Both the position numbers and the translations under genes were made by a program. A DNA stretch of 64,000 bases from Alphaproteobacteria bacterium (lineage in GTDB: Bacteria > Pseudomonadota > Alphaproteobacteria > RF32 > CAG-239). The notes under the pieces are model-generated. The model saw nothing but the letters and a program-made list of their open reading frames with translations. It ran no database searches and was not told the DNA's origin. Location of the stretch: NCBI GenBank assembly GCA_017457005.1, contig JAFTII010000031.1, positions 746 through 64,745 of the forward strand. The letters run 5' to 3'. This document shows, one piece after another, positions 56,760 to 63,437 of this stretch (the stretch's first letter is position 1; each line of letters opens with the position of its first letter).

Positions 56760-56781
56760 GTAGGTTGATTTATATAAGAAA

Positions 56782-56812
56782 AGCAGGCTTTTCAGCCTGC
56801 TTTTCTTATTTG
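56782..56812 (+). terminator. Rho-independent terminator after rpsA
   Basis: AGCAGGCT-TTTC-AGCCTGCT hairpin followed by TTTCTTATTT. Confidence 0.5.
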
Positions 56813-56876: not shown

Positions 56877-57842
56877 ATGGCAAATATAACCGATACATCT
56901 TTTTCAGATATTTATATTACTCCGGATAAAAAAGCATATATCCCTGATTTACAAACCATGAATGCTTTAAAATTATATGAACCAGAAGATTTTGAGATAT
57001 TTTTTGAACAAATTGCTAATTCTTGGGATGGGAAAAACCCCAGCTATTCTGTAGTATATAACGGAATATATTACAGAATAGAGAGAACGGTTACTTTAGA
57101 CGGTGTACAGTATTGTGCAAGGAAAATGCCGGAAGAAGTACCGTCTTTTATGTCTTTGGGCTACCCTCGCCAATTAGAAAAATATATGTTGTCTTTAAAA
57201 AATGCTTCAGGATTAATACTTTGGAGCGGACCAACCGGTTCAGGAAAAACAACTTCAATCTCAAGCTTGCTAAAAGAATACCTTATGAATGAAGGTGGTT
57301 TTGCATACACTATTGAAGATCCAAATGAACAACCTCTTGATGGAATATATAATGCAGTTAACGGCGGTTTAGGTTTATGCAAACAAACTATGCCGGCAAA
57401 CGGGAATTGGGGAGAATCTTTAAAATCGGCTCTTCGTTCTCACCCCAGATATATAATGGTTGGAGAAATAAGAACACCGGATACGGCATCTGAAGTTTTG
57501 CGTGCGGCAACCTCAGGTCACTTAGTATTATCTACAATTCACGCTAACAACCTGACTGATGCAATTAACTCTGTTGTAAAATATGCCTCATCCAGCGGTA
57601 TGAGTGAAGAGTTGGCTTATGACTTGTTTTCAAGAGGAATGCTAGCGGTTTTGCACCAAACTCTGGTAGGCACATCCGTAAAAAGAGCATCTGTTTCTTG
57701 TTTGTTTGCAAATGCAGATACAACCAAAGGCGACCAAGTACGAGGCATTATTAAATCAGGCAAGCTAAATTTAGCAACATCCATTGAAACTCAAATGACC
57801 AGAATGGCTCGCGGGCTTCCTTTGTTTTCAGATATTTCTTAA
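56877..57842 (+). CDS. Stand-alone PilT/VirB11-superfamily secretion ATPase (321 aa)
   Basis: Walker A GPTGSGKTTSI, Asp box/Walker B region IMVGEIRT, His box VLSTIHANN. Small size and lack of an N1 extension or tetracysteine fit a retraction-type or VirB11-like ATPase rather than GspE. Confidence 0.6.
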   Translation: MANITDTSFSDIYITPDKKAYIPDLQTMNALKLYEPEDFEIFFEQIANSWDGKNPSYSVVYNGIYYRIERTVTLDGVQYCARKMPEEVPSFMSLGYPRQLEKYMLSLKNASGLILWSGPTGSGKTTSISSLLKEYLMNEGGFAYTIEDPNEQPLDGIYNAVNGGLGLCKQTMPANGNWGESLKSALRSHPRYIMVGEIRTPDTASEVLRAATSGHLVLSTIHANNLTDAINSVVKYASSSGMSEELAYDLFSRGMLAVLHQTLVGTSVKRASVSCLFANADTTKGDQVRGIIKSGKLNLATSIETQMTRMARGLPLFSDIS

Positions 57843-58275: not shown

Positions 58276-58800
58276 TTATCCTTGTTGAGCCTTTAATTTA
58301 TAAATATATTCAACGACATCATCATCATCCCAATCTACCGTACCGCTAATACGACCGATTTCTTCGCCTGATTTATTAATTAAGACAGTGTGAGGATATG
58401 AAAAAACACCAAAATCTCCGGCTAATGTTCCTTTTTTATCAATATAATATTTTACATCTGTAGCTCCATATTTTTGAAGCAATTGGCGTTGTTCCCATAT
58501 TCCTGTCCATTCCTCACTGTTAGAAACCAGTAAAACCTTTATACCGTTATTTTGGGTTTTATTGACAAATGTATTAATCTCATCAAGTTCTTTTATACAT
58601 GGTGCGCAATATCGTGACCAAAACATAACCAATACAAAATCACCCCGAAGATCATTTAAGCGCAAAGATATGCCCTCCGGAGAATATATCGGAGATTGCG
58701 GAGCCGGACGAGAATAGGCAAAAATATTGATTCCGCTTTTTGCCATTACTAAATTTGCACAGACACAAAATAAAACTATAAGCAATATTTTTTTTATCAT
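58276..58800 (-). CDS. TlpA/ResA-like periplasmic thiol:disulfide oxidoreductase (thioredoxin fold)
   Basis: Signal peptide; WSRYCAPC CxxC active site. Confidence 0.65.
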   Translation of the reverse strand: MIKKILLIVLFCVCANLVMAKSGINIFAYSRPAPQSPIYSPEGISLRLNDLRGDFVLVMFWSRYCAPCIKELDEINTFVNKTQNNGIKVLLVSNSEEWTGIWEQRQLLQKYGATDVKYYIDKKGTLAGDFGVFSYPHTVLINKSGEEIGRISGTVDWDDDDVVEYIYKLKAQQG

Positions 58801-59021
58801 CGTTTTCTCTGCATAACTTAATTTTTGCTTAACTCTTATCAGCTATATATTTATATTATACCCATAACAAGTAAAGGAATGGTTATGAAAAAATATTTAT
58901 CTTTGATATTTTTATTTACAATTTTTTGCATGGTGGCCGCTTGTGGTAAAATATCTAATCCGGAAGCTGTACCTAATAGCGGATATCCGCATACTTACCC
59001 ATACAGATAAGGAGATTTATA

Positions 59022-59705
59022 ATGGCCGAAAACTCTTTTGAAAACGAGCTTATTCCTTATGTTGAATTTGCCGATAATGCAAATGAACGCACTCCTTGTG
59101 TATTGGTTTTGGATTGTTCCGGTTCAATGCGAGGAGAACCCATCAAGCAATTAAATGCGGGGTTAAAAGCCTTAGAAAAAGAATTAAAAGAAGATATTGA
59201 TGCCAGCTCAAGAGTACAACTTCTGATTATTAAAGCTTTCGGTAAAGATGAAGCTATTATTGCTTCTGATTGGATTGATGCTATGAATTTTGAAGCTCCT
59301 ACAATGGAAGCCGGCGGGCTGACCCCTCTCGGAAAAGCAATGGAATTGGCTCTACAAAAAATAGAAGAACAAAAATGTCTTTATGACAGTTGCGGAATAA
59401 CATCTAAAAGACCTTGGGTATTTTTGATAAGTGACGGTGAGCCGACTGATTATGACTGGGAAATAATTGCTAAAAAATGTCGCTATGCTCAAGATAATAA
59501 AAAAGTCGTTGTTCATGCCGTTGGCACACAGGGTGCAAACTTAGAAAAACTCGCAAAATTTTCAACAATGTCTCCCAAGCGACTTACCGGATTAAAATTT
59601 ACAGAATTTTTCTTATGGCTCAGCAGAAGTGTATCTTGCATTTCCAGAGCTGCTCCCAATACCCCTGACCTGCTAGAAGATACCGGAGAATGGGATGAAG
59701 AATAA
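59022..59705 (+). CDS. vWA-domain protein (TerY-like)
   Basis: MIDAS motif VLDCSGSM, then LISDGEPTD. First gene of a vWA-PP2C-kinase triad. Confidence 0.65.
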   Translation: MAENSFENELIPYVEFADNANERTPCVLVLDCSGSMRGEPIKQLNAGLKALEKELKEDIDASSRVQLLIIKAFGKDEAIIASDWIDAMNFEAPTMEAGGLTPLGKAMELALQKIEEQKCLYDSCGITSKRPWVFLISDGEPTDYDWEIIAKKCRYAQDNKKVVVHAVGTQGANLEKLAKFSTMSPKRLTGLKFTEFFLWLSRSVSCISRAAPNTPDLLEDTGEWDEE

Positions 59706-60432
59706 ACCCCGAATCGTTGCAGCCAGTGTGAGAGGTTCTCTCCATTCCATGTATCAATTGCCTTGCCAAGATTATAACCGCCATGCAATCGGGAAAAATT
59801 TGGTGGCAGTCGTGTCTGATGGAGCAGGATCTGCCAAATTCGGAAAAACAGGGGCAAAAATCATTTGTGATACGATATGTAATATCTTGAAAAATGCCAA
59901 ATTCAAAAATATAAAAAAAGATATAATATCCGCAATACATCTTTCCAGAGAAAAATTAATCTTACATCGTAAAAACAACAGCAAGTCTGAAATCGGCATA
60001 AGTGATTTTGCAGCAACATTAGTCGGGGTTGTTTATCATAAAAACAATGGTATTTTTTTTCATATCGGAGATGGCGCAGCCATTGCCTTAAAAAACGGAC
60101 ATAATGAGGCAATAATTTCAAAACCGGAAAATGGGGATTTCAGTTGTGAAACTTATTTTTATACTCAACAAGAATGGAGAGAAAATCTGCGTTTTACATC
60201 ATTTGATAATGTAAATTCTATTTTTTTGATGAGTGATGGAGTAACTACATTTTCGCTCAGTTCTGATTTTCATAATATAAAAAATAATTTTATTACCCCT
60301 ATAGATACTTTTCTGCGTGAAACTCAAAACAAAATCAAAGCCGTAAAAGCCCTTGCAAATACATTAAATACGCCCAAAGCACAAAAAATCAACACCGATG
60401 ATAAAACGTTGGTTTGGATAAAGGTAAACTAA
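59695..60432 (+). CDS. PP2C-family serine/threonine phosphatase
   Basis: VSDGAGSAKFG and LMSDGV metal-binding Asp motifs. Overlaps the vWA gene by 11 nt. Confidence 0.6.
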   Translation: MKNKPRIVAASVRGSLHSMYQLPCQDYNRHAIGKNLVAVVSDGAGSAKFGKTGAKIICDTICNILKNAKFKNIKKDIISAIHLSREKLILHRKNNSKSEIGISDFAATLVGVVYHKNNGIFFHIGDGAAIALKNGHNEAIISKPENGDFSCETYFYTQQEWRENLRFTSFDNVNSIFLMSDGVTTFSLSSDFHNIKNNFITPIDTFLRETQNKIKAVKALANTLNTPKAQKINTDDKTLVWIKVN

Positions 60433-60433
60433 A

Positions 60434-61894
60434 ATGCAAAAAACACCTCATTCTATATTCAATGCCGTATATGCAGATGGAAATTTTGAAAAAATAACTC
60501 TCGGAAAAATATTAAATCGGGGAGGCGCTTCCGGAAAAATTTATGAGGTTGAAAATCATCCGCAATTAGTAGCTAAAATTTTTCATAACACAAAAAACAG
60601 TCCTACCAATCGCAAAAAATTAGAAGCAATGCTGTTAAATAAACCAAGTTTCCCGCCGGTAGTGGAGACAGATGGCGTAGAATATACTCAAATTGCTTGG
60701 CCGGAAGCTTTGTTAGAAAACGAACAAGGATTTTGTGTCGGCTACTTAATGCCTCTCATTAACATGACTGAAGCAGTTTCTTTAGATCATCTTATGCAAA
60801 AAGCTGTCCGAAAGAAACTCGGACTTCCGGAAAAATATGCTTATCGTATATTTGCAGCATATAATGTTGCCTCAATGATTACATCTTTACACAAATGCGG
60901 GCATTATATGGTTGATTTAAAGCCATCTAATGTTTCTGTTTATAAAAGTAATATGTTAGTCGCAATGGTGGATTGTGACGGTTTTTCCATTAAAGGCGAA
61001 AATGACAGATATCCTGCTGAATTTGTGAGCGAAGAGTATATATATCCGGAAGGAATGACACTATCTTGTCAAGAGATGGGAGAAGAACAAGATAAATTTG
61101 CTTTAGCCGTTATTATATTCCGTTTACTAAACAACGGAATCCATCCTTTCTCCGGCACGCCCAGAAAAAATGATGCAGAAATGTTAACCATTCAAAACCG
61201 AATAGAAAAATATCATTATGCTTACGGATTATGGCCGGATAAATATCAAGCCCCTCACCCTTACAGTCTTCATGAATATTTTGATAAAACGACTTTAGAA
61301 ATGTTTGAAAGGGCTTTTGTAAAAGGCGAAAACCGACCTACAGCCTATGAATGGCAAGAACATTTATGGAAAATAATGCATAATCTGAAACAATGTAAAA
61401 ACAATCCAAATCATGTGTATTTTACATCTAAAGGCTGTGGACTGTGTATGAATGAAGATAAATTTTATCATGAAATCAGCAAAATAAAACAACAAAAACA
61501 AACCCCACCTAAAATACGAGGTATTAAAGTTGATGATTTGGCAAATGAAAAAATAACCATAAATAATACAATTAAAAAAGCTCTTGAATCCAAAATGCAC
61601 CGTATTGTGTTGGGAATTATTGTTTGCTATATGTTATTTTTCGGTATGCTATATAAAATATTAGCTCCGCTTAAAGAGTTGTTGGACAATGTCGGAATCG
61701 GCGTGCAGGCAATCTTAACAACATTTTTGCTTTTAGGAATTAACAAGCTTATTTCAAAATATCAAACGTTGTTCCCTTTATTAAAAAATAAAGCTTTAAC
61801 AGATATGTTGCAAGTATATGCGCTAATTTGCATAATTATTGCGCTTGTATCTGTTAATGATATTCCTAATAATTTACTTGAATTAGATTTTTAA
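60434..61894 (+). CDS. Ser/Thr protein kinase with C-terminal membrane helices
   Basis: Gly-rich loop GGASGKIYEV, catalytic loop HYMVDLKPSNVSV, DCDGFS (DFG-equivalent), C-terminal hydrophobic segments (IVLGIIVCYMLFFGMLYKIL ...). Confidence 0.65.
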   Translation: MQKTPHSIFNAVYADGNFEKITLGKILNRGGASGKIYEVENHPQLVAKIFHNTKNSPTNRKKLEAMLLNKPSFPPVVETDGVEYTQIAWPEALLENEQGFCVGYLMPLINMTEAVSLDHLMQKAVRKKLGLPEKYAYRIFAAYNVASMITSLHKCGHYMVDLKPSNVSVYKSNMLVAMVDCDGFSIKGENDRYPAEFVSEEYIYPEGMTLSCQEMGEEQDKFALAVIIFRLLNNGIHPFSGTPRKNDAEMLTIQNRIEKYHYAYGLWPDKYQAPHPYSLHEYFDKTTLEMFERAFVKGENRPTAYEWQEHLWKIMHNLKQCKNNPNHVYFTSKGCGLCMNEDKFYHEISKIKQQKQTPPKIRGIKVDDLANEKITINNTIKKALESKMHRIVLGIIVCYMLFFGMLYKILAPLKELLDNVGIGVQAILTTFLLLGINKLISKYQTLFPLLKNKALTDMLQVYALICIIIALVSVNDIPNNLLELDF

Positions 61895-61940
61895 AAAAAT
61901 TATATTGCTAGGGTAAATATTTACTTTTAAGGAAAAAACA

Positions 61941-63329
61941 TTGAAAAATCTTAATCCGATTATGATTTCCGGAAAGGAAGTTCTTCCTTTAATAGAAGGA
62001 GGAAAGGGTATCAACGCCAGTGATGGTCGCTCGTCCGGAGCGTGGGCTCATGAAAATTGTGTAGGTACATTTTCCGGTGTCAGTCCTGATTACTATGATG
62101 AAAACGGAAAAGTCATTCCAGAACATTATTTAACAAAAAACAGATTAACCAGACATGTCGAAATGGTTGAGCAATCAATAAAAGGTTGTTTGGCTCAAGC
62201 GAAAATTGCTCATGAAATATCCGGCGGAAACGGTCGTATTCACATGAATATGTTATGGGAACTTGCAGGTTCTCAACAAATTTTGACCGGTGTGCTGGAA
62301 AAAGCAAAAGGCTTAATAAACGGCGTAACTTGTGGTGCAGGATTACCCTATAATTTAGGAGAAATTGCCTCCAAATTCGGAGTTTATTACTATCCGATTA
62401 TCTCATCAGCTCGTGCTTTTCAAGTTCTATGGAAAAGAGCTTATAATCGCTTTATGGAGTATTTGGGCGGGGTTGTTTATGAGGATCCTTGGTTGGCCGG
62501 TGGCCATAACGGGTTATCAAATGCAGAAGATCCGCAGACTCCACAAACACCTTATGAACGTCTTGTAGAGTTGCGAAAAACCATGAATAGCGTGGGTTTA
62601 CATGAAAAACCGATAATTTTAGCCGGCGGTGTATGGGCTTTAGAAGATTGGCAAGACTATATTGATAACCCTGATATAGGAAAAATCGCATTTCAGTTTG
62701 GAACACGTCCAATGATAACAAAAGAAAGTCCGATTAGTGATGCTTGGAAGAAATTGATGTTGCAAGTAAAAAAAGGCGATGTGATTTTACAAAAATTCAG
62801 TCCTACCGGTTTCTTTTCCTCTGCTATAAAAAACACTTTCTTATCGCGTTTGATGGAACGTAAACAAGGAGAAATAACCTTCCAAAAAGAAGCTTCCGAT
62901 GAATATTCTTATCCTTTAGAAATAAGCGAAACAAAAAAGATTTTTATTAAACCGGAAGATGCAGAAAAAGCAAATAAGCAAATTGCAGCAGGGTACTCCG
63001 AAATAAAAGAAACTCCCGATGATACGGTTGTATTTTTATCTGCTGATGAATGGGTGCAAATGAAAGAAGATCGGAAGAATTGTGTCGGTTGCTTATCGCA
63101 ATGCCAATTCTCAGCTTGGTCTCAAGCAAAAGGGAACTCCGGAAGGCTTCCTGACCCAAGATCTTACTGCATACACAAAACTTTATATGATGTAAGCCAT
63201 AACGGCAGTATTGTAGATAATCTGCTTTTTGCCGGACATCAGGTTTATCGTTTTGCAACAGATCCTTTATACAGAAACGGAATACCGTCTGTAAAAGAAC
63301 TGATAGAAAGGATAAAAACCGGAAAATAA
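61941..63329 (+). CDS. Nitronate monooxygenase (NMO)/FabK-like FMN-dependent TIM-barrel oxidoreductase with Cys-rich C-terminal extension
   Basis: LAGGHNG and ILAGGVW blocks resemble the NMO EAGGH and AAGGI motifs; C-terminal CVGCLSQC. Moderate-to-weak call. Confidence 0.4.
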   Translation: MKNLNPIMISGKEVLPLIEGGKGINASDGRSSGAWAHENCVGTFSGVSPDYYDENGKVIPEHYLTKNRLTRHVEMVEQSIKGCLAQAKIAHEISGGNGRIHMNMLWELAGSQQILTGVLEKAKGLINGVTCGAGLPYNLGEIASKFGVYYYPIISSARAFQVLWKRAYNRFMEYLGGVVYEDPWLAGGHNGLSNAEDPQTPQTPYERLVELRKTMNSVGLHEKPIILAGGVWALEDWQDYIDNPDIGKIAFQFGTRPMITKESPISDAWKKLMLQVKKGDVILQKFSPTGFFSSAIKNTFLSRLMERKQGEITFQKEASDEYSYPLEISETKKIFIKPEDAEKANKQIAAGYSEIKETPDDTVVFLSADEWVQMKEDRKNCVGCLSQCQFSAWSQAKGNSGRLPDPRSYCIHKTLYDVSHNGSIVDNLLFAGHQVYRFATDPLYRNGIPSVKELIERIKTGK

Positions 63330-63437
63330 AATTTTACCCCTTGTTATTCAAACAAGGGGTTTTTTATATTAACCAATATTAAACCTGTAATAATTATACT
63401 ATAGTGAACAACAACATTAACTTTATCGGTATATTAC

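Follow-up and report, generated by a model that had tools for sequence, protein, structure and literature searches.

A conserved chromosomal vWA-PP2C-kinase operon, predicted to act in phospho-signalling, in a lineage of gut Alphaproteobacteria

What does a set of three adjoining genes for a von Willebrand factor A (vWA) protein, a PP2C phosphatase and a Ser/Thr kinase do in the chromosome of an uncultured gut bacterium: does it defend against phages, sense metal stress, or serve signalling within the cell itself? The question is raised by a 64,000-nucleotide stretch of an Alphaproteobacteria bacterium (assembly GCA_017457005.1, contig JAFTII010000031.1, positions 746 to 64,745), which as a whole is called the window here and whose positions are counted from its first letter. 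The three genes, at 59022-61894 on the forward strand, are a real, translationally coupled operon. We put at about 80% the probability that they form a chromosomal, vertically inherited Ser/Thr phospho-signalling operon of the branch that contains YegL, PphC and YegI of E. coli, working by the mechanism proposed below. The operon comprises the following genes:

59022-59705, forward strand: vWA gene, 227 residues, Pfam VWA
59695-60432, forward strand: PP2C gene, 245 residues, Pfam PP2C_2
60434-61894, forward strand: kinase gene, 486 residues, Pfam Pkinase

The ATG of the PP2C gene lies inside the vWA gene (an 11-nt overlap), and a single nucleotide separates the PP2C stop codon TAA from the kinase ATG; both junctions were read directly. 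A fourth gene, encoding an NMO-like protein, follows on the same strand and is treated below. A preliminary description of this region had placed the four open reading frames (ORFs) at these positions and called them tightly linked, which the ORF list and the junction reads confirm. It had also recognized the vWA domain with its metal-ion-dependent adhesion site (MIDAS), the phosphatase and the kinase, and here too it was right: all four proteins exceed the Pfam gathering scores (VWA, 1.1e-6, 29.4 bits against a cut-off of 23.8; PP2C_2, 1.4e-37; Pkinase, 4.5e-12; NMO, 7.1e-9), and the motifs it quoted are real and conserved.

The operon has kept its place in a whole lineage. Relatives were taken as the best 80 of 430 in a scan of genome contigs, and all of them come from one lineage of metagenome-assembled genomes of gut Alphaproteobacteria. 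An identical kinase is present on human-gut metagenome contigs, and its close relatives, at 64-86% identity, are spread over ~80 uncultured species of gut Alphaproteobacteria, among them 'Proteobacteria bacterium CAG:495' and Candidatus Scatocola. In 79 of the 80 species the kinase gene is directly preceded by the vWA and PP2C genes, the remaining contig beginning inside the kinase gene, and the triad occupies the same chromosomal place in every one of the 79 testable species. The co-conservation on which the preliminary description had made its proposal depend is thus found at 79/79 loci. Its view that such modules are rare in reduced, AT-rich alphaproteobacterial genomes does not survive, the same locus being present in at least 80 species of the gut lineage. 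In 79/79 loci the vWA gene runs into the PP2C gene, with an overlap of 8-20 nt, and the spacing from PP2C to kinase ranges from -4 to +17 nt in the related loci. The flanks are retained as well: a thioredoxin-like gene in 77/80 relatives, a phosphoribosyltransferase gene in 62/80 and a PilT-like ATPase gene in 53/80. Near the triad we found none of the signs of a genomic island that were looked for, namely a tRNA gene, an Rfam match, a meaningful flanking repeat, a mobile-element gene or a marked deviation in GC content. The shared locus and flanks, the preserved coupling and the lack of island signs argue that the module is old and vertically inherited. The genes within ~10 kb are housekeeping genes: cmk, rpsA, phosphoribosyltransferase, thioredoxin-like, NMO-like, thymidine-phosphorylase-like and Hsp70.

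The proteins of the locus differ widely in conservation. Their mean pairwise identities, computed over 48 genomes, are:

vWA: 0.90
NMO-like: 0.80
PilT-like: 0.74
kinase: 0.71
PP2C: 0.61
phosphoribosyltransferase: 0.58
thioredoxin-like: 0.51

The conservation of the vWA protein is about that of ribosomal protein S1, which is 86-95% identical to the window copy in the eight related loci that include it. The nonsynonymous divergence (dN) is 0.03-0.06 for the vWA gene, 0.10-0.16 for the kinase gene and 0.19-0.30 for the PP2C gene; even the closest species show saturation at synonymous sites, so that dN alone is informative and its ratio to synonymous divergence (dN/dS) unusable. The triad genes are under purifying selection, far beyond chance. 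The triad is a stably inherited chromosomal module, housekeeping-like rather than a mobile defence island.

Comparison with described proteins places the triad in a known family. In BLASTP searches the three proteins match YegL (42% identity, 2e-49), PphC, also named YegK (26%, 7e-21), and YegI (29%, 2e-32) of E. coli; the homologues on ter plasmids are ~33% identical for TerY, 28% for the phosphatase (1e-15) and 25% for the kinase (1e-8). The TerY-P triad of Anantharaman, Iyer and Aravind (2012) is taken here from papers that cite it, where the passages concerned define it as a TerY-like vWA protein, a PP2C phosphatase and a kinase that has a zinc ribbon fused to its C-terminus (PMC11090510; PMC4978471). 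All of these parts occur in the window: a vWA protein with a MIDAS, an adjoining PP2C phosphatase, and a kinase with a C-terminal zinc ribbon whose metal binding is predicted. Gene order, coupling and homology to both the E. coli and the ter-plasmid proteins uphold the TerY-P architecture that the preliminary description had proposed. An association with ter genes or with DNA-processing or restriction modules, frequent in TerY-P systems yet outside the definition of the triad, was found nowhere within ~10 kb. Judged by its protein sequences, the window triad falls within the TerY-P triad family, on the branch of YegL, PphC and YegI.

The same vWA-PP2C-kinase order occurs in E. coli, Azospirillum, Deinococcus, Sinorhizobium, Granulicella and Raoultella and on a metagenome contig of the Joint Genome Institute (JGI); the contexts available outside the gut lineage were plasmid records and a few metagenome contigs. 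The triads of Azospirillum, Deinococcus, Sinorhizobium and Granulicella are plasmid-borne, and overlapping genes are seen in these and on the JGI contig. On the Sinorhizobium meliloti plasmid (contig L090, 2405-8905) the triad stands between the His-Xaa-Ser radical S-adenosylmethionine genes hxsB-hxsC-hxsA upstream and an SH3-domain gene downstream, a neighbourhood that may reflect a functional association in that plasmid.

The kinship with ter plasmids bears on the idea that the triad is a sensor of metal or tellurite stress, in which the MIDAS of a TerY-like protein senses metal and the kinase and phosphatase relay the signal. Such a role would fit the ~33% identity of the vWA protein to genuine ter-plasmid TerY paralogues, the same vWA-PP2C-kinase arrangement within the ter cluster, and the published hypothesis of a 'metal-sensing phosphorylation-dependent signalling switch', in the words quoted in PMC11090510. 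However, neither terZABCDE nor terW, terX or TerY_C is found within ~10 kb on either side, and the identities favour YegL, PphC and YegI (42, 26 and 29%) over the ter branch (33, 28 and 25%). The metal of a MIDAS, moreover, normally serves the binding of a protein ligand and not the sensing of metal concentration. We consider a metal sensor very improbable, and return to the triad as a signalling operon of the YegL-PphC-YegI branch.

The most constrained member of that operon is the vWA protein, which likewise shows the highest conservation of the three in each of the distant triads compared. Its MIDAS is complete (D31-x-S33-x-S35, T101, D138) and invariant across triads from four phyla. The protein has no hydrophobic segment and is thus cytoplasmic. 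[quoted passage not shown] The last helix and the disordered tail that follows it hold a conserved C-terminal motif, W-L-S-x-S-x4-S, whose W199, S201, S203 and S208 are invariant in triads from the same four phyla. Close homologues carry the JGI label 'uncharacterized protein YegL'.

In the phosphatase, the metal-binding aspartates D42, D126, D181 and D235/D236 are invariant. D42 aligns with D46 of E. coli PphC, whose mutation inactivates that enzyme (bioRxiv 10.1101/303594).

The kinase falls into three parts:

60434-61378, forward strand: kinase catalytic domain, residues 1-315, Hanks-type (Pkinase, 4.5e-12)
61379-61468, forward strand: predicted zinc knuckle or ribbon, residues 316-345, C321-x5-H327-x7-C335-x2-C338
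61469-61894, forward strand: linker and membrane tail, residues 346-486, with three hydrophobic helices in the model

The catalytic domain carries K48, a catalytic loop that reads D161-L-K-P-S-N166, D180-C-D182-G-F where DFG is usual, and P205-E206. A family alignment of 30 sequences shows no variation at K48, D161, D180 and D182 and almost none at K163, P164 and N166; in a second alignment, of 33 sequences, all of these residues are invariant. The AlphaFold2 model of the kinase has a pLDDT of 89, and its best structural matches are PknB, PknA and AMPK. With all catalytic residues present in both enzymes, kinase and phosphatase activity are predicted. The cysteines C321, C335 and C338 and the histidine H327, modelled in a region with a confidence of ~89-98, do not vary among the 30 or the 33 family members aligned, which include E. 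coli YegI; from this pattern they are predicted to form a zinc knuckle or ribbon.

Behind this motif the family diverges. In 150 family representatives the conserved match stops at about residue 339-345, and the tails of 672 representatives found at E<1e-30 vary widely; among the representatives listed the length ranges from ~200 to 1145 residues, the shortest being fragments. The tail is the least conserved part of the window kinase too (0.60-0.62, against 0.84 for the kinase domain). The transmembrane helices that the preliminary description had placed at the C-terminus appear as three hydrophobic segments (391-409, 422-440 and 454-472, with Kyte-Doolittle peaks of 2.23, 1.72 and 2.23), which AlphaFold2 models as helices joined by loops of ~12 residues, with no extracytoplasmic domain. 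A linker followed by helices with such short loops suggests an anchor rather than a sensor.

Within its own family E. coli YegI is the outlier: in the alignment over window residues 159-184, nearly all relatives keep D-L-K-P-x-N and DCDGF. YegI has been described in publication as 'lacking conserved motifs'. The autophosphorylated serine in its DSD loop is not a feature of the family, because the relatives have DCDGF.

How such an operon might work can be sketched by analogy with the E. coli enzymes. YegI is an active, Mn2+-preferring, autophosphorylating Ser/Thr kinase that is dephosphorylated by PphC (bioRxiv 10.1101/819920, 10.1101/303594), and reporter fusions showed it to be a two-pass inner-membrane protein without an extracytoplasmic domain (Rajagopalan & Dworkin). 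By analogy, the window kinase would be anchored in the inner membrane, its catalytic domain and zinc knuckle projecting into the cytoplasm, would activate itself by autophosphorylation and would then phosphorylate its targets; the phosphatase, like PphC, would reset the kinase and also the targets of the kinase. The conservation points to the vWA protein as the central and most constrained partner, which is most likely a MIDAS-dependent docking partner of the kinase, a phospho-substrate of it, or both. Candidate phospho-acceptors are three serines of the last helix and the disordered tail of the vWA protein: S201, S203 and S208. The vWA protein would in this way convert the balance of kinase and phosphatase into the assembly or release of a protein complex.

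Several points weigh against this reading. The lineage is known solely from metagenome-assembled genomes. The E. coli locus is barely expressed, and no substrate, signal or phenotype has been reported for it (bioRxiv 10.1101/819920, 10.1101/303594), so that the analogy gives enzymology and not physiology. The serine that is essential for YegI autophosphorylation, in the 'DSD' loop, is a cysteine in the DCDGF of the window kinase, and details of activation may therefore differ from those of YegI. The kinase tail may cross the membrane with two or with three helices. The role proposed for the vWA protein is read only from its conservation and from the published TerY-P hypothesis, and we found vWA phosphorylation reported for no member of the family.

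The preliminary description had also pointed to defence, and the same architecture is indeed shared with the TerY-P type of anti-phage system (Gao et al. 2020), in which the switch would respond to infection by setting off growth arrest or some other effector. TerY-P is reported as protective against T7-like phages in the passages of PMC7699616 and PMC11090510 that mention it; homologous plasmid triads adjoin DNA methyltransferases, a GIY-YIG nuclease and transposases; and the window kinase matches the PD-T4-6 kinase models weakly. However, the PADLOC TerY model matches the vWA protein only at E 0.026 (12 bits), and the PP2C and STK_OB models are unmatched; the YegL, PphC and YegI proteins of E. 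coli likewise go unrecognized by the PADLOC TerY-P models. Behind the catalytic domain of the kinase come a zinc knuckle and a membrane tail, and the AlphaFold2 model of the kinase contains no oligonucleotide/oligosaccharide-binding (OB) fold. A locus that keeps a single chromosomal position amid housekeeping genes across at least 80 species, under very strong purifying selection, is unlike the patchy, fast-moving pattern of defence islands. No restriction, nuclease or other effector gene and no mobile-element gene adjoins the triad, and a scan of IMG/VR found no relatives. We regard an anti-phage system as quite unlikely. Of the stress or defence signalling that the preliminary description had envisaged, the defence module is not sustained by the PADLOC run, the neighbouring genes or the IMG/VR scan; a role of the triad in stress signalling is possible. 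Taken as a whole, the triad family is mobile, and its members may often take part in conflict systems; the window instance shows none of those hallmarks.

Two candidate annotations related to phages were rejected. A PADLOC defence annotation fails, as the vWA and PP2C proteins match no model and the kinase has only weak generic matches (PD-T4-6, MkoA, PglW). Carriage by a phage was considered for MT836238.1 ('UNVERIFIED: Bacteriophage sp.', 11.7 kb), the sole match in the phage collection. Its gene order is that of a bacterial chromosome, with PilT-like, thioredoxin-like, vWA, PP2C, kinase and NMO-like genes, and the record almost certainly is a contig from this gut alphaproteobacterial lineage under a wrong label.

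We now turn from the signalling operon to the genes next to it:

61941-63329, forward strand: NMO-like gene, 462 residues from a TTG start, Pfam NMO
63336-63360, both strands: bidirectional hairpin terminator, stem of 10 bp including 5 G-C pairs, then a T run, directly 3' of the NMO-like gene
58885-59010, forward strand: micro-lipoprotein gene, 41 residues, signal peptide and lipobox, called on an identical metagenome contig

On the identical metagenome contig, gene callers start the NMO-like gene at the ATG at 61962, which gives 455 residues. The closest solved relative of the protein is FabX of H. pylori (7e1q, 8.8e-22, over residues 4-308), an enzyme with flavin mononucleotide (FMN) and a [4Fe-4S] cluster that acts as a dehydrogenase/isomerase in the synthesis of unsaturated fatty acids (PMC8626469). 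Both proteins have the FMN TIM barrel of the NMO family, a catalytic histidine in G-G-H and a C-terminal cluster of four cysteines. The Cys-rich tail noted in the preliminary description reads C381-x2-C384-x3-C388...C410, and these cysteines, together with the catalytic histidine H189, are invariant in 66/66 orthologues; the motif is probably a [4Fe-4S] site. The spacing differs, C-x2-C-x3-C-x21-C in the NMO-like protein and C300/C304/C308/C320 in FabX, and an insert of ~85 residues that precedes the cluster is found only in the NMO-like protein. The identity between the two is well below the 50% that the authors of the FabX work used for homologues (PMC8626469). Assignment as FabK was rejected (NCBIfam FabK, 22.5 bits against a cut-off of 453). 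By these features the protein looks like a FabX-type FMN/[4Fe-4S] metabolic enzyme. If it is a desaturating enzyme of the FabX type, unsaturated fatty acids would be made in the gut lineage by the route that H. pylori uses.

The micro-lipoprotein gene ends 11 nt before the start of the vWA gene and has an RBS-like (ribosome-binding site) sequence, AAAGGAA, 6 nt upstream. Its predicted mature peptide has ~22 residues (CGKISNPEAVPNSGYPHTYPYR). In 74/80 related loci a lipobox ORF precedes the vWA gene at a distance of ~0-32 nt, and the mature parts share the strongly conserved consensus CGK.S.P.P..GSGYPH.YP... A search for a family returned LptM matches only, below threshold and driven by the signal peptide. 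The transcription unit probably has this gene as its first cistron, and the product is a candidate partner of the triad.

These two neighbours raise the question of whether the triad is part of a system of four or five genes, in which the FabX-like enzyme, and perhaps the micro-lipoprotein, are partners and the kinase regulates a redox or lipid-modifying enzyme upon an envelope signal. We looked for a terminator-like site in the gap between the kinase and NMO-like genes and saw none there; the hairpin at 63336-63360, behind the NMO-like gene, is the first such site outside a gene downstream of the start of the operon. The NMO-like gene adjoins the kinase gene in 65/80 species and on an outgroup contig (L092), and the lipoprotein gene is upstream in 74/80 loci. 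Yet the gap between kinase and NMO-like genes measures 45-134 nt in the relatives and contains an RBS of its own and promoter-like matches. The NMO-like gene is missing or displaced in ~15/80 loci: in some it is replaced, relocated or separated by an oppositely oriented gene, and some of these loci end before its expected position. None of the seven triads examined outside the lineage adjoins an NMO-like gene, and none outside it adjoins such a lipoprotein; adjacency within one lineage is expected from shared ancestry alone. We give a larger system little credence. The NMO-like gene, which the preliminary description had put forward as a linked effector or sensor, is most probably a metabolic housekeeping cistron of its own, sharing the neighbourhood, and possibly a transcript, with the signalling operon.

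A more far-reaching version of the phospho-signalling operon would have the cassette, which elsewhere is mobile and often linked to defence, domesticated in the gut lineage into a core, possibly essential, envelope-linked module, with the nearly invariant vWA protein as a hub on conserved machinery and the lipoprotein as a periplasmic cue or partner of a kinase that has no sensor. We regard this as unlikely, though not far-fetched.

Further features were seen upstream. A perfect 16-bp inverted repeat with a 4-nt loop, directly after the rpsA stop codon (56774-56809), is probably the rpsA terminator. An orphan secretion ATPase like PilT, ComGA and DotB (56877-57842, forward strand; T2SSE, 3.6e-30) is encoded directly 3' of rpsA and is kept in 53/80 relatives with a mean identity of 74%; no other pilus or secretion genes were found around it within ~10 kb. 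Divergent from the lipoprotein-triad operon is the gene of a TlpA/AhpC-like thioredoxin-fold protein with an N-terminal hydrophobic signal (58276-58800, reverse strand), which adjoins the triad in 77/80 species though it is just 51% conserved.

The lineage thus offers a triad whose fixed site and very strong purifying selection argue that such genes can have a housekeeping role, and it cautions that not every vWA-PP2C-kinase triad is an anti-phage system. The vWA protein appears to be the key player, and the MIDAS site, S201, S203 and S208, and the zinc knuckle are concrete experimental targets.

Set beside known systems, the window triad is a further instance of an architecture already described. 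It is most like the E. coli locus, where the order yegL-pphC-(yegJ)-yegI equals that of the window and the genes overlap or abut. YegI and the window kinase both have a cytoplasmic catalytic domain, a C-x5-H...C-x2-C knuckle and a membrane anchor, and neither has an extracytoplasmic sensor. They differ in the catalytic loop, which is degenerate in YegI (VGDVNQNS, with DSD) and reads D-L-K-P-x-N with DCDGF in the window kinase, and in overall build: YegI has 648 residues, two passes and a large cytoplasmic C-terminal region, whereas the window kinase, of 486 residues, finishes with two or three helices. Expression of the E. coli locus is poor, and in K-12 yegJ interrupts it, whereas the window operon is intact and strongly constrained. 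In E. coli the Hsp70-like gene yegD is a neighbour, and it has no counterpart at the window triad. A link to the 634-residue Hsp70 gene that lies ~3.6 kb downstream in the window was considered and rejected as coincidence; this Hsp70 is 98% conserved, DnaK-sized and 24% identical to YegD, and it is near the triad in 1/80 relatives.

The ter clusters of Raoultella and Klebsiella plasmids share a TerY-type vWA protein, a PP2C_2 phosphatase and a kinase in the same order, all three homologous to those of the window. They differ in having several TerY paralogues, one with TerY_C, and a phosphatase with a 320-residue N-terminal extension, and in standing among terZABCDE, terW and terX. The TerY-P anti-phage system of Gao et al. 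(2020) has in common with the window the three-component logic of vWA protein, PP2C phosphatase and Ser/Thr kinase; its context is a defence island, and its kinase, as PMC11090510 describes it where it treats the system, ends in an OB fold and not in a zinc ribbon. The TerY-P modules of CoCoNuT Type II and III-A (McrBC-like) systems, with a TerY-like vWA protein, a PP2C phosphatase and a kinase-zinc ribbon protein, match the window in description (PMC11090510). Those modules sit in restriction-type operons with the helicase-nuclease genes CnuH and CnuE, and the window is without such genes. In the archaeal ArnA/ArnB pair (PDB 8s05), a cytoplasmic vWA protein and a zinc-ribbon partner with an FHA domain form a complex under the control of Ser/Thr kinases and a phosphatase and regulate archaellum expression. 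The resemblance of the window vWA protein to ArnB is one of fold only, with no relationship at the level of sequence. Among these systems, what is worth keeping from the window triad is its core-genome behaviour, the exceptional constraint on the vWA protein and the micro-lipoprotein conserved upstream; in other respects it is an ordinary instance of the known architecture.

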